Both the position numbers and the translations under genes were made by a program. The notes below the pieces were generated by a model that saw nothing but the letters and a program-made list of their open reading frames with translations, was not told where the DNA came from and did no database searches. From NCBI RefSeq assembly GCF_000406165.1, contig NZ_CM001977.1:1-64000 (forward strand): DNA of 64,000 nt, written 5' to 3'. This stretch comes from Dickeya zeae NCPPB 2538 (GTDB lineage Bacteria > Pseudomonadota > Gammaproteobacteria > Enterobacterales > Enterobacteriaceae). Shown here in pieces: positions 13,128-23,481 of this stretch. Position 1 is the stretch's first letter; each line of letters begins with the position of its first letter.

Positions 13128-14717
13128 TTATATCGAGTCGGCGTTTTTCACATCATCCCAGCTCAGTCCAAAGCGGGCCAGGTACTTGCGTAGCCTGTCG
13201 GCGTCATTGGGCTGTTTTTTCTGGCGGCGTGAAATCGCAAACAGTGTACGCCCGGCTTCTGACAGGCTGTGGGCTTGCCGACAGACCTCTAACACGCGCT
13301 CAAGCTGGCATTGCTCGAAGATATCCAGCTCACCGAGGTGGGCAGGCAAGGTTGTCGTGGCAGCAGGGCCTCGCCACTGCTGTTTAAGACGTTGAATTTC
13401 TTCATCTACCAGCGTGGTATTAATGCGCCCCTGTTCGGCGAGCGTGGCCATACGATGTACGCTGGCGCCAAGCTCGCGAAAGTTGCCCCGCCAGCTGGCG
13501 TGCTCCGAACAGGCAAAGGCCAGAAAACGCTGGCGTGCTTCTTTATCAAACCGTACCTGGACTTGTTGTTGTTGGGCGAAGCGGTGTAATTCAAAGTCCA
13601 GGTTAGGTTCGATATCTTCACACCGTTGCGCCAGGCCTGGCAGCGGAAAAGTCCACATATTGATGCGGGCGTACAGATCTTCACGAAAATGCCCTTCCTC
13701 CACCCAGTGCGGCATATCCCGGTGAGTGCCGGCAATCAACTGAAAATCGCTGCTGACCTCTTTATCGGAACCAAACGGCAGGAAGCGCTTTTCTTCGATG
13801 GCTTTCAACAACATCGCCTGTTCATCCTGGCCTAACTCACCGATCTCATCGAGAAACAAAACGCCGCCATCGGCTTCCCGCAGCAGCCCCGCGCGTGATT
13901 GCTGCGCTCCGGTAAACGCGCCGCGAACATGACCAAACAACGTGGACATCGCATTATCGCCGCGCAGTGTGGCGCAATTGACGGCGACAAACTTTCCGTT
14001 GACCTGATGGCGTGATGCCTTGAGCTGATAAATACGGTTGGCCAGAAAGGATTTGCCAGCGCCGGTGGGGCCGGTTAACAAAATTGGGGCTGAAGAGCGC
14101 AGGGCGACCCGCTCAATCTGATCGATGATGCGATTAAATGTCGCGTTACGGGTGGCGATACCTGCTTTCAGAAATGAAACCGATGCTTGTTGTTCCCGCA
14201 GGAAGCGGCTGGTAATGGCGGTGTAACGGCTGAGATCGAGGTCGATAACCGTGTACTGCCCGATAGGGGAAGGCGCTTCGTCGTTATGGTCAGACGGGCC
14301 GGTTTGCAGCAGCCGGGCTGGCAGGTAGCGTGCTTCCGTTAGCAGAAACCAGCAAATCTGCACCACGTGCGTGCCGGTAGTGATGTGCACCAGATACTCT
14401 TCGTGTTCTGTATCAAAGGGATAATGGGCCGCAAAGTCGAGAAACGTGGTGTATACCTCTTCGAAGTCCCAGGGGTCGGCGAGTTCAACCTCATGCAGGC
14501 TCACGGTGGTGATGGGGGATATCTGGCCGATATCTTCCCGAACCTGTTGCGCCAGCCCGAGACTACGCGGCTGATAGAGCAATTCCAGTCGATCAATGGG
14601 TAAATCCGGTTGCTGGCAGGCGGCGATGGTCGGTCTCCATCTATTCCAGCGGTTTTGTCGTTTCCCTCGTTTATCCAGCGCCGTACCCAGCACGCCAATC
14701 ATGACTCTTCGCTTCAT
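13128..14717 (-). CDS. rtcR: Sigma54-dependent transcriptional regulator RtcR (CARF-like N-terminus, AAA+ sigma54 activator domain, C-terminal HTH)
   Basis: The 529-aa translation is collinear with E. coli RtcR, including [11 protein letters not shown] and GAFTGA-type (GAFTGAQQ) motifs. It is transcribed divergently from the rtcB-containing operon. Confidence 0.92.
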
Positions 14718-14851
14718 GCTTTATCCTTTTTTATAAATACTTATCTAAAAAAATATTACTTTATCGGTTTAATGATTAACAGAGTAAGTGATGCGTAAAT
14801 AAATTCATTGAAAATCATTAAGTTGAATTTATTTTTGTGAATAGGGAAGGA

Positions 14852-14869
14852 CTGGCACGGTTTTAGCAA
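14852..14869 (+). promoter_or_regulatory. Sigma54 (-24/-12) promoter TGGCAC-N5-TAGCA upstream of the SPFH-rtcB operon
   Basis: ctGGCACggtttTAGCAaa is seen directly at 14853-14868, with the GG and GC elements 12 nt apart as in the TGGCAC-N5-TTGCA consensus. It lies in the rtcR-divergent intergenic region, as expected for an RtcR-activated promoter. Confidence 0.6.
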
Positions 14870-14970
14870 AAATATAAGCACTACACACAGGAAGGGAAGC
14901 ATACCCGCTTACGGTTGGGGGAGCCGGTGATGTTATTCCCGGGCGTTTTATTAAAGGGATTAAAAAGAAA

Positions 14971-15864
14971 GTGTTTAAGAAAATAACAATAAGAAAAGGG
15001 CAACTGGGTTTGCTCAGCCGAAACGGCAACGTGCGGCAGGTATTGGAAACCGGTTCTCATCTCCTGTTTGGTTGGGCCCGAAGGTTGTCAGTGGCCATCG
15101 TCGAACGGGATGGCTCTGTGCTTGACGCGACGCTTGCCGAACATCTACGTCAGTTTCATCCGGAATGGGTAGCGCGTTACTGCCTGTCAGCGGATATGGC
15201 GGATGATGAGATTGGCTTGCGTTATGACCGTGGGCAACTGCGGGAAATTTTGCTACCAGGTACCCGGCGTTTGTACTGGCGGCGAGATGAACAGCAGGTG
15301 ATTGAGCGCGTTTCTGCCCATCAGGCTCAGGTACCAGCGCGATTGCTGCCGATATTACTGCAACCAGAGTTACGTGAGCAGGCGGTCACTGGCAGTAACG
15401 GCGTGCTGGTCGCCGCTATTCCGACATGGCATGTCGGGATTTTGCATATCAACGGGCAACCCTCGGCACTACTGCCACCCGGTAATCATGGTTACTGGCG
15501 CTTTAATCGAAGCGTGAGTGTGGATGTGGTGGACACACGGTTACAGGCGCTGGATGTTGAGGATATCGAAGTACTGACCGCCGATCGGATCAGCGTGCGT
15601 CTGACGCTACTGGCGAACTGGCGCTACAGCGATGTGCTGGCTGCATTTGCACGTCTGGCGAAACCCAAAGCGCATCTGTGTCGGGCTTTACAGGTTGTGC
15701 TGCGCGATGTGGTGGGAATGCATCGGTTTGCTGAATTGCTGACCAGCAAACACACCGTTGGAGAACAGGTCAGTGAACAACTCGAGCAGCAATTGATGTG
15801 CTACGGGATAGACCTGGTCTCGCTGGCCGTGATGGACACCGAAGGCTATAACGCCGCCTGGTAA
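14971..15864 (+). CDS. SPFH/band-7 domain protein with no N-terminal TM segment and a novel N-terminal domain of about 150 aa; first gene of the rtcB operon
   Basis: The C-terminal half (DIEVLTADRISVRLTLLANWRYSDV ... ALQVVLRDVVGMHRFAELLTSKHTVGEQVSEQLEQQLMCYGIDLVSLAVMD) fits the SPFH pattern. The N-terminus has no 20-residue hydrophobic stretch. The GTG start is uncertain. Confidence 0.7.
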   Translation: MFKKITIRKGQLGLLSRNGNVRQVLETGSHLLFGWARRLSVAIVERDGSVLDATLAEHLRQFHPEWVARYCLSADMADDEIGLRYDRGQLREILLPGTRRLYWRRDEQQVIERVSAHQAQVPARLLPILLQPELREQAVTGSNGVLVAAIPTWHVGILHINGQPSALLPPGNHGYWRFNRSVSVDVVDTRLQALDVEDIEVLTADRISVRLTLLANWRYSDVLAAFARLAKPKAHLCRALQVVLRDVVGMHRFAELLTSKHTVGEQVSEQLEQQLMCYGIDLVSLAVMDTEGYNAAW

Positions 15865-15933: not shown

Positions 15934-17160
15934 ATGAGGCATAACGATTATCAGGTACTGGATATGCCGCAAGGCGTGCCGGTAAAAATGTGGACGTACG
16001 GTGTTCCGGTCGAGCCTGAAGCCCGCGAACAGTTACGGAATACGGCGAAGATGCCGTTTATTTTCAGCCATCTGGCGGTGATGCCGGATGTCCATCTTGG
16101 CAAAGGGTCTACGATCGGCAGTGTGATTCCAACCCGTGGGGCCATTATTCCGGCCGCCGTCGGCGTAGATATCGGCTGCGGCATGATGGCGGTGCGAACC
16201 TCGCTGATTGCCGCTGATTTACCGGACACGCTGTTGGGTATTCGCAACGCCATTGAGCAGGCTGTTCCTCATGGACGTAGCGTGAATCGTGGGGGGCGGG
16301 ATAAAGGCGCATGGCATGAGCCACCACCACGTGTGGATGCCCATTGGCGGCAACTGGATGCCGGATTCAAACGTATTACCGAACACTATCCGTCGTTGCT
16401 GAAAACCAACAATTACCACCACTTGGGCACGCTCGGAACCGGTAACCACTTTATCGAATTGTGTCTCGATGAGATGGATCGGGTGTGGGTGATGCTGCAC
16501 AGCGGTTCCCGAGGTGTTGGCAATGCTATCGGCAATCTGTTCATCACGCTGGCGCAGCAAGATATGCGACAGCATATTGCGAATTTGCCGGACTGTAATT
16601 TGGCGTATTTCGCCGAAGGTAGCCGTCATTTCGATGACTACCAGTATGCGGTTGGCTGGGCACAGGGTTATGCGCGCCATAACCGCGAGGTGATGATGGA
16701 ACAGGTGCTGCAGGCATTGGCACAGGCGATCCCCAGGCCGTTTACCGCCCGGCAGGAAGCGGTGGATTGCCACCACAACTATGTACAACAGGAAACGCAT
16801 TTTGGCGAGCCGGTGCTGGTCACGCGTAAGGGCGCAGTATCGGCCCATCGCGGGCAGATGGGGATTATTCCCGGCTCGATGGGAGCGAAGAGTTTCATTG
16901 TGCGTGGTTTGGGTAATCAGGAGAGCTTTTGTTCCTGTAGCCATGGTGCCGGGCGCACCATGAGTCGAACGGCGGCAAAAAAGCAGTTTACGGTTGACGA
17001 CCACGTGCGGGCGACGGCCCACGTCGAATGCCGTAAAGACCATGACGTGATTGATGAAATTCCCATGGCGTACAAAGACATTGATGCCGTGATGGCGGCG
17101 CAAGCATCGCTGGTCGAGATTGTTCACACGCTGCGGCAGGTGGTGTGTGTAAAAGGATAA
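15934..17160 (+). CDS. rtcB: RNA-splicing ligase RtcB (3'-phosphate/5'-hydroxyl RNA ligase)
   Basis: The 408-aa translation is collinear with E. coli RtcB (MPFIFSHLAVMPDVHLGKGSTIGSV ... HGAGR ... VCVKG). Confidence 0.95.
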   Translation: MRHNDYQVLDMPQGVPVKMWTYGVPVEPEAREQLRNTAKMPFIFSHLAVMPDVHLGKGSTIGSVIPTRGAIIPAAVGVDIGCGMMAVRTSLIAADLPDTLLGIRNAIEQAVPHGRSVNRGGRDKGAWHEPPPRVDAHWRQLDAGFKRITEHYPSLLKTNNYHHLGTLGTGNHFIELCLDEMDRVWVMLHSGSRGVGNAIGNLFITLAQQDMRQHIANLPDCNLAYFAEGSRHFDDYQYAVGWAQGYARHNREVMMEQVLQALAQAIPRPFTARQEAVDCHHNYVQQETHFGEPVLVTRKGAVSAHRGQMGIIPGSMGAKSFIVRGLGNQESFCSCSHGAGRTMSRTAAKKQFTVDDHVRATAHVECRKDHDVIDEIPMAYKDIDAVMAAQASLVEIVHTLRQVVCVKG

Positions 17161-17181
17161 TAAGCATAACGAGGGAAAAAT

Positions 17182-17967
17182 ATGGAACATGAATCTGACG
17201 TGAGTGCTGTCATGCGCGAGCGTGTCCGTGGTGTGCTGGCGGATGTAGAACGCCGGTTTGGCGTGCGTGTGCTCTATGCCTGTGAGTCAGGCAGTCGGGG
17301 ATGGGGATTTGCTTCGCCGGATAGCGATTATGATGTGCGTTTTATCTATGTCCATCCCCCAGAATGGTATTTACGGGTTGAGCAAGCCCGGGATGTGATT
17401 GAATTACCGATAGATGATGAGCTGGATGTCAGCGGGTGGGAGTTGCGTAAGGCATTGGGCTTACTGAAGCGGGCCAACCCGACGCTGATGGAATGGCTGG
17501 ATTCGCCGGTGGTGTACCATCAGGATGAGAACACCATGAAACAGATGCGCGCGCTGGCACCGGATCATTTTTCGCCGGGTCGTGCCTGTTACCACTATCT
17601 ATCCATGGCGCGAAAGAACTTCCGCGGCTATTTGCAGGGGGAATCGGTTCGGCTGAAGAAGTACTTTTATGTCCTCAGACCGATACTGGCGGCGTTATGG
17701 ATAGAAGCGGGTAAAGGCGCTCCGCCGATGCGCTTTGAGACATTACTGGCTGGAACGGTGACCGATCAGGCTTTACTGGCGGAAATCGCGCATCTGCTGC
17801 GCATCAAACGTCAGTGCGGTGAGGCGCAATACGGTGCCCGATTGCCCGCTGTCCATGCATTTATCGAACATCAGTTGGGGCGTGAGCGGCCTGTGCTGGA
17901 TGCGACGCTGGCGGGCATGGACCAGACGCTGAACCAGTTGTTGTTTAATACGGTGATGGAAGGGTGA
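17182..17967 (+). CDS. Pol-beta-superfamily nucleotidyltransferase (RtcB-associated type)
   Basis: The 261-aa translation carries the GSRGWGFASPDSDYDVRF motif, a GS-x9-DxD nucleotidyltransferase signature. It starts 21 nt after the rtcB stop in the same operon. Confidence 0.75.
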   Translation: MEHESDVSAVMRERVRGVLADVERRFGVRVLYACESGSRGWGFASPDSDYDVRFIYVHPPEWYLRVEQARDVIELPIDDELDVSGWELRKALGLLKRANPTLMEWLDSPVVYHQDENTMKQMRALAPDHFSPGRACYHYLSMARKNFRGYLQGESVRLKKYFYVLRPILAALWIEAGKGAPPMRFETLLAGTVTDQALLAEIAHLLRIKRQCGEAQYGARLPAVHAFIEHQLGRERPVLDATLAGMDQTLNQLLFNTVMEG

Positions 17968-19599: not shown

Positions 19600-19627
19600 T
19601 GCCGAAACCCATCTACTGTAGAAAACC

Positions 19628-19665
19628 GAAAGGCCAGGGCATCGTTCTCTGGCCTTTATTTATTG
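19628..19665 (+). terminator. Rho-independent terminator of gor (AGGCCAG ... CTGGCCT followed by TTTATTTATT)
   Basis: Seen directly about 30 nt after the gor stop. Confidence 0.6.
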
Positions 19666-19884
19666 ACTCATCGATACATTGCCTTTTCTAAAACGTTTAT
19701 GCCCTTTTCCGAGTTACAGGTGTGACTGAGAACAAAAGTAGCAACCAATATGTTGACCAAAATTTAGTAATGATACACAGTGTCCATTATTACCGAATCA
19801 GATCGATGCATAACAAAGCGCTACAGTCGGATAGATTTTCCGCTGCGCTTCAAATTTGCCGCAGTGAGTGGCGTTAGGTGAATA

Positions 19885-20442
19885 ATGATTACTTCTGAAA
19901 TTTTTCTAGAGTGGCTTAGGTATGCGATTGGGCGAGTTGGTCCTGGCTATTTTGGGTTCGTTGAGCGAGTTTATTGTTATGAACTCTATCATTTTTTAAG
20001 AGTTGCAATGTATGTGCATGAACGTATACACGGCCCCATTCAGAATGTGTATCTTCATTCTGAATTTGTAAAAGTTGTAATTACCGATGAAGAGGCAAAA
20101 AAACATGGAGTTTTCCCATTAGAAAATCGCCGCTCTCCCGACTTCATACTTCATGATCCGAATACGACTGATCATCAAATTGCTGCGATGGAAGTTAAAG
20201 CTACTCCTGATCTGAGTTACGCTGAATTTGTGTCTGATATTAATAAATTGTCGGAATTAAGAAGCAATTATAGATACAGCTTGGTTATCTTTCATTGCAT
20301 CAATTCTGACCTAGGCCGGATACAACAGCACGTAACTAGAGCTCAACATGAAGGCATAGTCTTAGACCCTGAGGTTTTGATTATCGTCAAACCTGAAAGC
20401 CATTTTCCAATTCAAGAAATATATCTTGATGCATTATTGTAA
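19885..20442 (+). CDS. Hypothetical protein with a PD-(D/E)xK nuclease-like motif arrangement (185 aa), in an AT-rich islet
   Basis: CYELYHF ... RSPDFILHD, then 11 aa, then AAMEVK matches E ... hhhD ... hEhK of the restriction-endonuclease fold. It is read by eye; no family match was computed. Confidence 0.55.
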   Translation: MITSEIFLEWLRYAIGRVGPGYFGFVERVYCYELYHFLRVAMYVHERIHGPIQNVYLHSEFVKVVITDEEAKKHGVFPLENRRSPDFILHDPNTTDHQIAAMEVKATPDLSYAEFVSDINKLSELRSNYRYSLVIFHCINSDLGRIQQHVTRAQHEGIVLDPEVLIIVKPESHFPIQEIYLDALL

Positions 20443-20507
20443 TTCAGGGCGGTTGCTAACAAACCTCTCAAGGCACTTGCGTTGCTCGCTGGGGTGCTAC
20501 ATTTCTT

Positions 20508-21254
20508 ATGAGATTATTTATGGAACAAAGAAGAAAACTGATCCCAGTAATTTCTGAAGCTATATCTAAAACATTCGATATAGGTGATTGGAAATCTATT
20601 GGGTATGCAACTAAAAATGAATATTTTATTCAAAATCATCCTCGGCTCTTAAGGAGCTTGCAGTGGGGGGATGAGGATTATGAAGGCTGTGTTTTCGATG
20701 TTGTAGAGCACATCTATGATTCGGGTGATAAAAATATTGAGAAGTTACTAGGGAACTCAAAAGTCGAAAGATGGATCAAGTCCAATAAACCGGATATCTA
20801 TAAGGAATACTTCGACAACACTTACGTACCTAGCTTTAAACAAAGAAATCTATCCCCTAGTGAAATTGTTGATAAGGCACTGGAAGATGCTCAAGCTCTT
20901 ATAATTAATAATGGTCCTGTAAGTGCAATTGATCGGGTGCATACGGCGCTGCATGGGTATTTGAAACATCAGCTTGATCAAAAAAACATAGATTATCGGG
21001 CAGATGCAGGTATTACGGAACTATATAAATGCATTCGGGAAAATGTTCGAGAAATTAGAGAGCTTGGTGAGCGGTCAGAAGACATGAATAAAATGTTGCG
21101 TTCACTAACTTCTATTTTAGATGCGTTGAATCCGATTAGAAATAGAGCAAGTGTTGCTCACGCAAACGATACTCTTATAGGTGAAGCTGAAGCAAAGTTC
21201 GTAATTAATATAGTAAGTAGTGTGCTTCACTATTTGGACGAGAAGTTAAAATAG
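20508..21254 (+). CDS. HEPN-domain protein of the AbiJ/Abi_C type (Rx4-6H motif), 244-248 aa
   Basis: The C-terminus LNPIRNRASVAHANDTLIGEAEAKFVINIVSSVLHYL contains the canonical HEPN Rx4-6H motif in a helical context. The alternative ATG at 20520 gives MEQRRKL... The gene lies 66 nt downstream of the previous ORF on the same strand. Confidence 0.65.
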   Translation: MRLFMEQRRKLIPVISEAISKTFDIGDWKSIGYATKNEYFIQNHPRLLRSLQWGDEDYEGCVFDVVEHIYDSGDKNIEKLLGNSKVERWIKSNKPDIYKEYFDNTYVPSFKQRNLSPSEIVDKALEDAQALIINNGPVSAIDRVHTALHGYLKHQLDQKNIDYRADAGITELYKCIRENVREIRELGERSEDMNKMLRSLTSILDALNPIRNRASVAHANDTLIGEAEAKFVINIVSSVLHYLDEKLK

Positions 21255-21434
21255 TTGAATATAACAAGCGCAGACACAATTTTAAATTGTCAAGGAGTTC
21301 ATTGATGTCACAAGAAAAAAATAAAAGAATTGGTGAAAAAAGCGAATTGTAAAACTTCGTGAAAACAACGACTAGACGCTTTAAATGAAATCAAAACATA
21401 TGACTGTCAAGAAAGAAATGATGTTGTTATTAGA

Positions 21435-21743
21435 TTGGCATTCCACGATAAGGTTTTTAAAATTAAAGAAGAAGCATTTAGAGTTGCTCAGTCTTTAGGG
21501 TTAACAAAAAATGGCAAACCAATATCTCTAGGGAAAAAAGATATCGGCTATAAACCAAGTTATTTCACAAAGAAATTTAAAAGAATAAAACACGAACTTG
21601 GAACGGATGATTTTCAACTTGAAAAATTCAAAAATAAATTTTTGTTAATTGATCCAGAAATGTTTGATGTCATGCAGTACGAAAAAGGCATAAAATTCGA
21701 TATGTGGATTCAAAACACCTATCAAGGATTACCTAAAAAATAG
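21435..21743 (+). pseudogene. Probable decayed ORF remnant (the track's 102-aa TTG-start ORF plus an upstream ATG fragment in another frame, separated by an in-frame TGA)
   Basis: An ATG at about 21305 opens MSQEKNKRIGEKSEL and then stops. The downstream frame ...KQRLDALNEIKTYDCQERNDVVIRLAFHDKVFKIK... has no ATG start and is preceded by a TGA. Poly-A runs (A7, A6) sit at the junction. Confidence 0.3.
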
Positions 21744-21824
21744 GCGTGTGCTAACAAAAACTTGAAACTGGGTGGCATGAAATACCGGAATTCTGTTTCT
21801 GAATGGAGCATGATTTTGGGTCAG

Positions 21825-21889
21825 GGTCACCGAAGCCGTGATGTACCCACATCACGGTGACCACAGGGTGAGGACATTATTCCTCACCC
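21825..21889. repeat. Two adjacent stable hairpins: an imperfect one (GGTCACC..CCGTGATGT / ACATCACGG..TGACC) and a perfect 9-bp one (GGGTGAGGA-cattat-TCCTCACCC)
   Basis: Seen directly at 21825-21862 and 21866-21889 at the distal edge of the AT-rich islet. A REP-like element or small RNA is possible. Confidence 0.5.
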
Positions 21890-21943
21890 TGATTCAGTCA
21901 AGTCAGTAATACCCCAGCATTTCCCCATCCAACAGGCTTAGCG

Positions 21944-21976
21944 ATCGGCATTCGCCGATGCCGGTTCTGTTTTATT
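21944..21976 (+). terminator. Hairpin CGGCAT-tcgccg-ATGCCG followed by GTTCTGTTTTATT, a plus-strand terminator-like structure
   Basis: Seen directly. It lies just downstream of the minus-strand esterase stop at 21998, so it may act bidirectionally. Confidence 0.4.
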
Positions 21977-21997
21977 CCTCAATAAGACGCGCCGGTG

Positions 21998-23032
21998 TTA
22001 CAGATTCGCGTTGGCACTGGCTTTAGTGCTGCTGGCGGCGGATTTTGTGGGTTCGCCCAGCGTCTGTTTAAACCAGTTGACGACGCGTTCAATAATCGGT
22101 TTTTGGAACCAGGTGATATCGCCATGGTTGGCTCCTTCGACCAGCACATAGTCGACGCGGTTACCCTCAGCTTTCAGCGCCTTGAATAACTGGGCACTTT
22201 GCAGCGGTGATACCAGGGTGTCCTTGCTGCCATGCATAATCAGGAAGGGCGGTTTTTTGCCTTTGATATGCCCCATTGGGCTGGCGTTCAGCGCTTTTTT
22301 CGGATCGCTGCTGATAGTTGCGCCCGGCCAGTCACGGAAGGCGGTGCCGTTAACTAATAGCGCTTCGGTGACGGCAGGCGATTGATGAACTTTCTGGACA
22401 TTTTCTGGGAAACCTTCGCCGATATTCAGCAGATTGGAGAGACCGTACAAGGTGACGACCGCCTGAACGTCGGAAGATTGATTCAGGAACTGTCCCTGTT
22501 CAAACTGTTTGTCACCATTGGTCGTACCCAGCATCTGGGCCAGATATCCGCCAGCTGAATCGCCCAGCACGCCGATGCGGTTCGGATCAATACCATACTC
22601 GGCCGCATGTTCCCTCAGAAAACGCACGGCGGATTTGCCATCCTGCACGGGGGCTGGAAAGGTGTCGGGCACGACGCGGTACTCCGCCGCGGCGACGACA
22701 AAACCGGCTTCTGCCAGCGCCATACGCATTTCGGAGAATTTTTCATAGTCGGCTGACGTAAAGCCCCCACCGGGGAAATACACAATCGCTGGTTTACGAT
22801 CCTGTGTGCGAGGAATTAATAACGACATCTGTAGTTGCCGTATCGCACGCGTGCTTTTTACCTGAGAATAAATAATACCGCTCATGGCATCAATTTGTTC
22901 GCTGGTCTTCTTTACCTGAATAACCAGAGCACCGTCGGTGTAACCAGGTAAATCGGGGGTTGCAGCATAGATTGTCGTAGTGGTCATCCCCATTATGATT
23001 GCGCCTGCCAGTACGATTTTTTTGAATAACAT
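21998..23032 (-). CDS. Secreted alpha/beta-hydrolase (carboxylesterase/lipase-type, GDSAGG nucleophile motif)
   Basis: The 344-aa translation has an N-terminal signal-peptide-like segment (MLFKKIVLAGAIIMGMTTTTIYA), an oxyanion-hole YFPGGGF and GVLGDSAGGYLA around the catalytic serine. Confidence 0.85.
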   Translation of the reverse strand: MLFKKIVLAGAIIMGMTTTTIYAATPDLPGYTDGALVIQVKKTSEQIDAMSGIIYSQVKSTRAIRQLQMSLLIPRTQDRKPAIVYFPGGGFTSADYEKFSEMRMALAEAGFVVAAAEYRVVPDTFPAPVQDGKSAVRFLREHAAEYGIDPNRIGVLGDSAGGYLAQMLGTTNGDKQFEQGQFLNQSSDVQAVVTLYGLSNLLNIGEGFPENVQKVHQSPAVTEALLVNGTAFRDWPGATISSDPKKALNASPMGHIKGKKPPFLIMHGSKDTLVSPLQSAQLFKALKAEGNRVDYVLVEGANHGDITWFQKPIIERVVNWFKQTLGEPTKSAASSTKASANANL

Positions 23033-23481
23033 GGTTGTCCCTTTTTATTTTCATATGAAATATCTGGTTTTACTTTTTCACAAAGATGCCTCTATGAGTA
23101 TAGGGTGAGTGTAAATAGATGTGATCAGCCAGATTTATTTGTAATTAATAACAAATCACAATAACAGTAATAGCTATTTTTATATTATTTGTTGTGGTTA
23201 ATACGGCTATTTGATGACTGAAAATAGACCTATATCCCAAACAATTCGAGTTGTAGTGTAATACACTCGTGTTGATTGACACTATTCCAAAAAAAACCAG
23301 ATATCCCTCAGTTCTGTGATGAGCAGAATTGAAAGCGGTTTGCTGTGGCCCGAAGGGATGAGGTTTTGGATGGGCTAAATAATAAAATTAGCGCATCTGC
23401 AGTTTGAAGTATTACAGGGATGTTTTTATCCGATTTTATATACCATTAATATAAATAATGTATTGATTACGTGAGGTAAAA

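Follow-up and report, generated by a model that had tools for sequence, protein, structure and literature searches.

Integron cassettes are typically promoterless, and in the terms of IntegronFinder, attC sites found without an integron integrase are called CALIN or SALIN, the former needing at least two attC sites. Cassettes bank small, mostly single-gene defence systems, among them Taranis and cassettes encoding PD-(D/E)xK nucleases (10.1101/2024.07.02.601686; 10.1101/2024.07.02.601719). Taranis, a single gene carried as a cassette in the chromosomal integron of Vibrio cholerae, has been validated experimentally as an anti-phage system (Darracq et al., bioRxiv 10.1101/2024.07.02.601686), while solitary anti-phage nucleases are represented by Damona, a DUF6602 protein of the V. 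cholerae SCI (10.1101/2024.07.02.601686), and by Brc142 from mobile integrons (10.1101/2024.07.02.601719). The architecture in which an AbiJ-NTD5 domain is combined with an Abi_C HEPN domain was defined by Anantharaman et al. 2013 (PMC3710099).

The locus described here is an AT-rich islet between gor and an esterase gene of Dickeya zeae NCPPB 2538, within the 64-kb stretch of DNA that was analysed as a whole (the window). Like integron cassettes and CALIN/SALIN elements, the islet consists of small genes in one orientation with a TAAC... box after each, and has no integrase; its complete attC shares with those of integron cassettes the R''/R' cores and the canonical G|TTRRRY junction. Unlike an integron array, the chromosomal site that holds it also takes non-cassette cargo, namely Septu and an IS. 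With a probability of roughly two in three, the islet arrived by horizontal transfer, is what remains of an array of integron cassettes without an integrase, and lies in a Dickeya defence hotspot, its three former single-gene cassettes being functionally independent rather than a cooperating DNase/RNase pair. The story of a new DNase plus RNase pair would thus be replaced by one of escaped integron cassettes fixed in the chromosomal defence hotspot of a plant pathogen.

The gor-esterase junction and its insert

The limits of the insert (Table 1) are given by the Septu-carrying strain L096, whose homology with the window stops at position 19716 and restarts at 21830. The preliminary description had placed an AT-rich islet, judged by eye, at 19666-21997; that span does hold the insert, while about 50 nt on its left and about 170 nt on its right are conserved core flank. 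The composition itself is borne out by computation, as GC is 0.30-0.41 over positions 19600-21800 against 0.53-0.60 in the flanks, and among all 2113-bp segments of the 64 kb (mean 0.544, sd 0.048) none is lower than the insert, all those below 0.43 overlapping it. The sequence of the gor terminator is common to Dickeya strains with other cargo, and the right flank, with a terminator-like site at 21943-21966 in the terminator scan, is 98-100% identical across strains with different cargo. The leader of the insert had no match in 1.6 Mb of compared loci and may represent the end of an upstream cassette that has been lost.

The islet contains no methyltransferase, MNT, transposase or integrase gene, in agreement with what had been reported for the surroundings of the first two genes. 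A tblastn search of the 64-kb window and the Dickeya loci with two IntI proteins gave a best E of 0.15; the window holds no IntI-like gene and thus no complete integron, in which intI and attI adjoin the array.

Table 1. Features of the islet and its flanks (window positions)
Feature	Position	Strand	Remarks
gor intrinsic terminator	19629-19657	+	terminator scan: 11-bp stem and T-run; core flank, outside the insert
Islet proper (variable insert)	19717-21829	+	2113 bp; GC 0.366; limits from homology with strain L096
Leader	19717-19807		91 nt; no long ORF ends there (frames read by eye)
Intact attC-type site	19808-19879	+	R'' GCATAAC 19808-19814; R' GTTAGGT 19873-19879
ORF1	19885-20442	+	185 aa; solitary PD-(D/E)xK protein, unnamed family
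ORF1 core residues	19981-19983; 20137-20142; 20191-20199	+	E33; P85-D86; E103-V-K105
Decayed attC remnant, ORF1-ORF2 gap	20443-20519	+	CTAACAA 20456-20462; no complementary 3' arm; poor fold
ORF2	20520-21254	+	244 aa; alternative start 20508 (248 aa); AbiJ-family abortive-infection protein
ORF2 AbiJ_NTD5	~20526-20780	+	residues 7-91
ORF2 Abi_C/HEPN domain	~20880-21250	+
ORF2 R-N-R-A-S-V-A-H motif	21138-21161	+	R-x6-H site
Decayed attC remnant after ORF2	21255-21304	+	TAACAAGCGCAGACAC at 21262-21277; without 3' arm
ORF3 pseudogene	21305-21743	+	frameshift in A7 tract 21315-21321; residual 102-aa ORF 21435-21743
Decayed attC remnant after ORF3	21744-21829	+	CTAACAA 21751-21757; reaches the right end of the insert
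Conserved right flank	21830-21997		GC-rich hairpins and terminator region of the convergent esterase gene; outside the insert
Esterase gene	21998-23032	-	convergent with the islet

The same islet is present in CP040815, CP084740 and L098, and in CP053014 and L097 the identical boundaries enclose Septu with an IS instead. A comparison of this junction among related genomes had been proposed at the outset, with conservation of the pair as a housekeeping locus of normal GC counting against a defence role; the cargo varies by strain and the GC is low. No empty junction occurs among the loci recovered by look-up of the esterase, looking up the exact sequence of the window's Gor protein returned no record, and no Dickeya genome is among the 80 best loci listed in a scan of species-representative genomes. 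The pS is 0.02-0.05 for the islet against 0.10-0.145 for gor, and the lower value suggests that the islet was acquired, or has spread, later. By sequence comparison, the junction is a strain-variable defence hotspot of the Dickeya zeae group, and with its alternative cargo it could be a useful marker when the defence genes of Dickeya strains are surveyed.

attC sites and cassette relatives

The complete attC, with a predicted crossover between G19873 and T19874, is identical at 58 of 70 positions (83%) to the attC downstream of the ORF1 homolog in Pokkaliibacter (L016), with an alignment score of 35 against -10.6 +/- 4.3 for shuffled sequences and a blastn E of 9e-11. It also aligns with the attCs of two further loci (L013 and L011), and the cassette junction GGCGTTAGGTGAATAATG found at this site is the same as in a Pseudoalteromonas cassette. 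When every YAAC...GTTR pair of the window is scored for hairpin energy, a ranking that is dominated by a long GC-rich background and does not discriminate the attC, the site comes 267th of 588, and its unconstrained fold is unremarkable (z = -1.3).

By arm-complementarity criteria, one of the four expected sites is a complete attC, those after ORF1, ORF2 and ORF3 keeping the R'' half only. Relatives carry a full attC of 64-72 nt where the ORF1-ORF2 remnant lies, and the remnant has no AAC...GTT pair with arm complementarity. After ORF2, TAACAAGCGCAGACAC agrees with the L013 and L011 attCs along their 5' arm and diverges beyond it, while the remnant after ORF3 begins with GCTAACAAA, as does the attC of a V. 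vulnificus cassette, and shows weak arm complementarity (-5.5 kcal/mol) and a poor fold (z = +1.1). TAACAA boxes occur 7-14 nt past all three stop codons, and just two further TAACAA[AG][CG] sites exist in the 64 kb; these (63685 and 63869) were rejected as attC candidates, being within an apparent minus-strand coding region as read by eye. Support for a cassette array comes from short remnants and from the homology to cassettes found in other genomes. A CALIN would have at least two detectable attC sites within a few kb, and with a single complete one by the same criteria the islet is at best a SALIN-like element with remnants. The attC sites between the genes would have decayed to TAACAA stubs, so that the three genes would now be fixed side by side; with three of the four sites reduced to 5' stubs, they are no longer excisable one by one.

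All three genes have relatives inside genuine integrons. ORF1 homologs flanked by TAACAA...GCGTTRRRY attCs are found in Pseudoalteromonas, Aliivibrio, V. rotiferianus, Pokkaliibacter, Marinomonas and metagenomes, the Aliivibrio homolog being the fourth cassette after a TIGR02249 integron integrase (370 bits, cut-off 265), and the V. vulnificus homolog of ORF3 is the first cassette adjoining an integron integrase. Homologs of ORF1 and ORF3 are thus found in IntI-encoding integrons, and ORF2 homologs have flanking attCs: an attC-like site lies downstream of ORF2 relatives at 21% of loci, against 3.7% at control positions (p = 7e-5). This count comes from a crude arm-complementarity score with random-position controls, which replaced a strict RYYYAAC...GTTRRRY regular expression applied after stop codons that had detected 4 of 71 ORF2 loci and missed obvious attCs. 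About four fifths of the ORF2 relatives have no attC-like site directly downstream by this crude measure, and we therefore infer the cassette origin of the present ORF2 copy from its flanking remnants. We also infer how the array was inserted, and its donor, which would belong to the AT-rich marine Gammaproteobacteria whose chromosomes carry integrons. The islet would then exemplify how the cassette pool of marine Gammaproteobacteria supplies defence genes to Enterobacterales without an integron of their own; to our knowledge, Dickeya is not a known integron carrier.

The three encoded proteins

ORF1, with the 185 aa originally assigned to it, has the alpha-beta-beta-beta-alpha-beta core of the PD-(D/E)xK superfamily, with an Asp at the start of beta2, the (D/E)xK motif in beta3 and an acidic residue on helix 1. 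None of the residues E33, P85-D86 and E103-V-K105 varies among 26 close homologs; in 63 distant ones E103, K105 and P85 do not vary either, and D86 and E33 reach at least 90% conservation. The fold and motifs had been recognised correctly in the preliminary description and the conserved Asp misplaced, as D91 of 'FILHD' varies and the true residue is D86, which forms a literal Pro-Asp pair with P85 where beta2 begins. There is no Pfam model for the family, which spans bacteria and archaea with 1141 clusters at 50% identity. ORF1 and 62 relatives have no supra-threshold Pfam match, so the family is different from DUF6602 and unnamed, and identity with Damona (DUF6602) or Shedu (SduA_C) was rejected. 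Damona and Brc142 nevertheless resemble ORF1 in concept, as short single-gene proteins of nuclease fold with integron-cassette mobility, their anti-phage activity being known.

The top structural matches of ORF1 are the compact type II enzymes BglII, BamHI, BstYI and OkrAI, of similar size, from which it differs in sharing 8-12% identity and no sequence-profile match. Searches of PDB sequences with two ORF1 profiles (A1 and A8) found nothing meaningful, and a BFVD fold search gave no match at E <= 0.001. In contrast to type II R-M systems, no methyltransferase adjoins ORF1 in the window and none is enriched around its relatives, the enzyme being absent from the islet and from the top families among 121 ORF1-family neighbours. 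ORF1 cassettes hold ORF1 by itself; a conserved partner was likewise rejected, as the downstream genes of its relatives are mutually unrelated and the neighbours of distant relatives are heterogeneous and randomly oriented. Cassettes neighbouring ORF1 homologs include AbiV-like, TIR-like and Shedu genes.

With its BamHI/BglII-like core and intact E...PD...ExK site, ORF1 would be a Mg2+-dependent DNA endonuclease acting alone, without a methyltransferase, and most plausibly a stand-alone anti-phage or anti-MGE nuclease whose action would depend on modification, structure or infection. A broader proposal, which is tentative and possible rather than probable, is that ORF1 founds an unnamed family of restriction-fold nucleases that is widespread, minimal in size (about 185 aa) and independent of methyltransferases, whose members would act against phages or plasmids as autonomous single-gene effectors and spread as integron cassettes, ICE cargo and prophage morons, and that attC loss in Dickeya welded ORF1 to the AbiJ HEPN gene, maybe as the birth of a composite unit. 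It is unlikely that ORF1 is instead an orphan or type IV-like dimeric enzyme of the BamHI/BglII type, sequence- or modification-specific, with its methyltransferase elsewhere or needless if only modified DNA were cut. The compact type II enzymes among its best matches and the conserved PD...ExK site of the family agree with such an enzyme, as does Brc142, a putative dimeric restriction endonuclease cassette that protected against phage in mobile integrons (10.1101/2024.07.02.601719). Compact, well folded, partnerless, with its catalytic site intact and recurrent in mobile defence contexts, ORF1 is a practical lead that is cheap to assay.

ORF2 had been described as a protein of about 245 aa, which holds for either start (homologs and the NCBI annotation favour the ATG at 20520), with a C-terminal HEPN motif like those of Abi_C/AbiJ proteins. 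The latter is confirmed by PF14355 Abi_C (48.7 bits over residues 184-243; Pfam gathering cut-off 24) and by a HEPN fold with a conserved Rx4-6H motif. The N-terminal domain, thought to be unrecognisable and about 170 aa long, has about 100 aa and matches PF18865 AbiJ_NTD5 (81.1 bits, cut-off 26.7, residues 7-91). The pair had been left unassigned to any named system; ORF2 belongs to a named family, AbiJ, and ORF1 to an unnamed one. It has the exact architecture of PMC3710099, AbiJ_NTD5 followed by a C-terminal Abi_C/HEPN domain with an invariant R-x6-H, and is likewise a single polypeptide without an antitoxin gene. The N-terminal domain of lactococcal AbiJ (AbiJ/Abi-859) differs from that of ORF2, and the PADLOC model of this type (PDLC02347; E = 2.4e-10, 38.6 bits) matches the C-terminal two thirds of ORF2 only (residues 77-242 against 109-272 of 281 profile positions). 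Taranis, compared by its description, is similar as a single gene with an Abi_C/HEPN C-terminus and an AbiJ_NTD5-related N-terminus; it is described as distant from AbiJ_NTD5, whereas ORF2 matches that Pfam model strongly, and it is an integron cassette, as many ORF2 relatives are, whereas the ORF2 copy described here lies outside any integron.

The AbiJ_NTD5 domain of ORF2 may act as a sensor or regulator fused to the HEPN RNase domain; phage infection would lift autoinhibition, upon which the HEPN domain would cut RNA, translation would halt and infection would be aborted. The enzymatic activities and anti-phage roles of the islet are predicted throughout. A type III TA arrangement like that of AbiV was considered and is unsupported, as the islet, scanned with Rfam and for tandem repeats, has neither an RNA family nor a repeat resembling an RNA antitoxin.

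The two genes first described are followed by a third, ORF3, for a small helical protein; in this strain a frameshift in a poly-A tract has inactivated it. Alignment with L095 and L094 shows that the intact form, in L095, has an A6 tract and 145 aa. The family counts 81 homologs of about 145-153 aa, ORF3 has no Pfam or PADLOC match, and a DUF6602 gene adjoins its homolog in L181.

Expression, pairing and direction of transfer

Reading the islet as a silent relic, that is, as promoterless cassettes behind the gor terminator that are poorly or not expressed, decaying and without function in Dickeya, is quite unlikely to be right. The upstream terminator is strong and promoter-like sites are not in excess within the islet (9 against 7.5 +/- 3 expected), the attC sites have decayed, ORF3 is frameshifted in two of three strains, and the pN/pS of 0.2-0.4 for ORF1 and ORF2, a value resting on 5-14 substitutions only, is clearly more relaxed than the 0.05-0.12 of the flanking core genes. 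Against this, that ratio is below 1, three strains keep ORF1 and ORF2 at full length with every catalytic residue intact, own promoters are frequent on defence and TA cassettes, and the conserved flank has at 19664-19669 a weak -35-like TTGACT, seen by eye and unscored by the promoter scan, that could read into the islet.

The preliminary description had taken ORF1 and ORF2, given as co-oriented and 66 nt apart, for a two-gene defence or abortive-infection module. The co-orientation is as stated and the gap is 65 nt, or 77 nt with the favoured ORF2 start; defence-type PD-(D/E)xK and HEPN genes are indeed present, and it is as a new cooperating pair that they lack support. No ORF2-like gene lies near any of 93 ORF1-family loci and no ORF1-like gene near any of 80 ORF2-family loci, so the co-occurrence across unrelated genomes that marks a two-gene system is absent. 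Each gene travels as a lone cassette with different neighbours, the downstream genes differing in every ORF1 context, and AbiJ-family proteins and Taranis act as single genes according to the literature. A single cooperating operon of DNase fold and HEPN RNase, forming an unnamed new system, is thus very unlikely, even though no terminator separates the genes and the pair is intact in three Dickeya genomes, in two of which ORF3 has decayed. The intervening attC is destroyed, so that an integrase can no longer part ORF1 and ORF2, and in a variant of this idea its loss welded two cassettes that have since become co-dependent in Dickeya; the Dickeya copies represent one recent acquisition, as indicated by their pS, and joint retention of the pair is therefore no independent evidence. 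Adjacency in one genome can mislead the discovery of defence systems.

The cassette-remnant reading also implies a direction of transfer, and the reverse, in which the islet is an ordinary defence-island fragment whose relatives entered integrons later and the attC-like sequences of the window are coincidental or proto-attC, is extremely unlikely: homologs of cassette defence genes with near-attC sequences do occur outside integrons, and recruitment from defence islands into integrons has been proposed (10.1101/2024.07.02.601719), but the attC of the window is 83% identical to a cassette attC from another bacterial order and has the exact cassette 5' junction, cassette relatives lie beside integrases for all three genes, TAACAA stubs follow all three stop codons, and the islet GC of 0.37 fits AT-rich cassette donors and not Dickeya.

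Composition and gene content of the islet

The preliminary description had judged the stretch after gor to be AT-rich by eye, and this is borne out by computation, with a GC content of 0.30-0.41 over ~19600-21800 against 0.53-0.60 on both flanks. No 2113-bp window in the 64 kb has a lower GC than the variable insert (0.366; mean over windows 0.544, sd 0.048), and those below 0.43 all overlap it. Three more short AT-rich patches (GC 0.35-0.39) lie at ~14600-15000, 22800-23400 and 26600-27200, the second being intergenic between the esterase and DUF3237 genes. The two co-oriented ORFs described earlier were recovered in the ORF listing, together with a third, not described before, on the 3' side of ORF2. 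Most ORF2 homologs, as well as the NCBI annotation of the Dickeya copies, have 244 aa, so ATG 20520 is the likelier ORF2 start.

Coordinates of features in and around the islet
Feature	Position	Remark
rtcB, RlaP	15934-17967	upstream of gor
gor terminator	19629-19657	strong
-35-like/weak -10 region, in the conserved flank	19664-19692	
-35-like TTGACT	19664-19669	-10 weak
Variable insert	19717-21829	
attC site	19808-19879	72 nt
ORF1	19885-20442	185 aa
TAACAA box	20457	14 nt past ORF1 stop
ORF2	20508-21254	248 aa; 244 aa from ATG 20520
TAACAA box	21262	7 nt past ORF2 stop
A tract of ORF3	21315-21321	
Third ORF (ORF3 residue)	21435-21743	
TAACAA box	21752	8 nt past ORF3 stop

ORF2, the AbiJ-type HEPN gene, is a new member within an already known family, and ORF1 has a restriction-endonuclease fold and belongs to a family without a name. 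The earlier proposal that both form a new two-gene defence system finds no support in the comparative data: an ORF2-family HMM matched no ORF of 93 ORF1-family loci (flanks up to +/-10 kb), and an ORF1 HMM matched nothing in 80 ORF2-family metagenomic loci (314 kb). In the contexts compared, the gene downstream of the ORF1 homolog is different each time: its product has 196 aa in Pseudoalteromonas, 182 aa in a Vibrio conjugative element and 282 aa in a metagenomic contig, where it is TIR-like, and in a Pantoea prophage no co-oriented gene follows. The partners are related neither to ORF2 nor to one another. Around 60-odd distant ORF1 relatives, neighbouring genes are randomly oriented and of mixed function, and the top neighbouring families do not include a methyltransferase family. 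The ORF1-ORF2 adjacency is limited to the Dickeya zeae islet.

Relationship to integron cassettes

Close relatives of ORF1 belong to series of small genes that all point the same way, and the spacers of 50-200 bp between them prove, on inspection of their sequences, to be textbook attC sites, the recombination sites of integron cassettes. TAACAA (R'' box) overlaps the stop codon or comes shortly after it, and the 3' end of the spacer is GGCGTTAGGTG, GCGTTATGTG or GCGTTAGGC (R' box, GTTRRRY). Such attC-flanked relatives occur in Pseudoalteromonas, Aliivibrio, Vibrio rotiferianus, Pokkaliibacter, Marinomonas and metagenomes. The Aliivibrio finisterrensis array, whose fourth cassette carries the ORF1 homolog, begins next to a divergent 327-aa gene scoring 370 bits on the NCBIfam integron-integrase model TIGR02249 (cut-off 265 bits). 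ORF2 relatives, too, are often cassettes, with clear attCs at L099 (80% identical), L100, L101, L102, L108, L110, L112, L115, L116 and L123; by arm-complementarity score, an attC-like site directly follows the stop in 21% of 71 ORF2-family loci versus 3.7% at the 355 random positions used as control (Mann-Whitney p = 7e-5). ORF3 belongs to a sporadic family of ~145-153 aa annotated as 'HEAT repeat domain-containing protein'. In Vibrio vulnificus, the homolog is the first cassette beside the integron integrase; this locus lies downstream of infC-rpmI-rplT, and the attC of the cassette starts GCTAACAAA, as in the window.

The window itself retains traces of these sites. The 18-nt junction GGCGTTAGGTGAATAATG before ORF1 is the same as in the Pseudoalteromonas cassette, and the attC site is identical at 58/70 positions to the attC 3' of the Pokkaliibacter ORF1 cassette (alignment score 35 versus -10.6 +/- 4.3 in 2000 shuffles; blastn E = 9e-11, database 1.6 Mb), being alignable also to the attCs of loci L013 and L011. 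A TAACAA box follows each of the three stops, and TAACAA[AG][CG] occurs elsewhere in the 64 kb at two sites only, in what by eye is an apparently unrelated minus-strand coding region. The three boxes have no complementary 3' arm, and are therefore read as decayed attC remnants. Given the cassette relatives and the attC traces, with no integrase-like gene within the 64-kb window, we infer that all three genes came from the integron cassette pool. Defence genes in integron cassettes have been published (10.1101/2024.07.02.601686, 10.1101/2024.07.02.601719), and so have homologs of cassettes that lie outside integrons and have degenerate attC sites (10.1101/2024.07.02.601719), and the islet is a clear, unsurprising example of these patterns.

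ORF1 homologs were also seen on other carriers. In a Vibrio crassostreae conjugative element (L002 4979-7857), the homolog has attC-like flanks and lies between T4SS coupling-protein (T4SS-DNA_transf/TrwB-type) and TraG_N genes, so cassette-type units are also inserted in ICE/plasmid backbones. In a Pantoea dispersa prophage (L005-L007 4519-6573), it is the lone plus-strand gene amid minus-strand early genes, a moron position, with a phage Dam methyltransferase ~2.5 kb away and, ~0.8 kb away, a gene of DUF4145, classed as a HEPN family (PMC3710099).

A hotspot between gor and the esterase gene

The same islet occupies the same place in the complete Dickeya zeae genomes CP040815 and CP084740 and in the read-assembly contig L098. 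In CP053014 and contig L097, where the esterase is identical, homology to the window stops at 19716 and restarts at 21830, the same boundaries as those of the islet, and the cargo is an IS, PtuB (8.9e-100), PtuA (1.5e-164) and a 239-aa unknown protein, which is a Septu system; the gor-esterase site is thus a hotspot. The CP053014 insert (L096 7036-11545), whose IS has a DDE_Tnp_1 transposase, begins TTAACAAG and ends GCGTTAATG, both resembling attC half-sites. No Dickeya was among the best 80 loci listed in the scan of species-representative genomes, a ranking that a near-identical copy would have topped. Synonymous divergence among the three islet strains is 0.02-0.05 for ORF1 and ORF2 versus 0.10-0.145 for gor, which fits acquisition, or recombinational spread, after strain divergence. 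On few substitutions, pN/pS is ~0.4 for ORF1 and 0.2-0.35 for ORF2 versus 0.05-0.12 for flanking genes.

Just upstream of gor, a rtcR-Band_7-rtcB-RlaP block is present in the window and CP084740 and absent from CP040815, where an Apyc1-like metallo-beta-lactamase gene directly precedes gor; the block is a second indel polymorphism beside the hotspot. RtcB mends the type of RNA end made by HEPN RNases, and the islet without rtc in one strain means that there is no obligate link between them.

Predicted functions and expression

The strongest argument that ORF1, ORF2 and ORF3 would be independent functional units is that each is found alone in cassettes. If ORF2 behaves like other HEPN Abi proteins, its NTD5 domain may keep the HEPN RNase in check until infection is signalled, after which RNA cleavage would arrest translation and abort the infection. 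According to a 2026 review (PMC13064643), mechanistic information on AbiJ itself does not exist, and its escape mutations lie in phage ssDNA-annealing proteins. Among cassettes, the nearest validated analogue is the V. cholerae integron gene Taranis, which combines Abi_C with a distant AbiJ_NTD5 and acts as a single gene (bioRxiv 10.1101/2024.07.02.601686).

For ORF1, the intact PD...ExK site and BamHI-like core suggest that the protein is a metal-dependent DNA endonuclease. That it has no partner or methyltransferase, and that homologs are carried on cassettes, an ICE and a prophage next to AbiV-like, TIR-like and Shedu genes, argues for a putative autonomous conflict function, whose specificity might lie in DNA modification, in DNA ends or structures, or in infection-triggered activation. 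Damona (bioRxiv 10.1101/2024.07.02.601686) and Brc142 (10.1101/2024.07.02.601719), small nucleases that are carried alone on cassettes and act against phages, are precedents for this type, although ORF1 is outside both families; its uncharacterised family is the one part of the islet that merits experiment.

ORF3 is intact (145 aa) in CP084740, with A6 in its A tract, and frameshifted in the window and CP040815, with A7; the CP040815 gene carries another A-tract indel at a more 3' position. The poly-A tract could reflect slippage-driven on/off switching instead of simple decay. In a Vibrio contig (L181 1665-2468), a DUF6602 protein is encoded directly 3' of an ORF3 homolog; DUF6602 is the family of Damona, a validated nuclease cassette (bioRxiv 10.1101/2024.07.02.601686), and this neighbour is a further sign of ORF3-type cassettes travelling in defence-rich arrays.

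The islet follows the gor terminator, and promoter-like sites within it are at chance level only in a consensus promoter scan. The -35-like TTGACT in the conserved flank just past that terminator went unscored in the scan; if active, it would read into any hotspot cargo.
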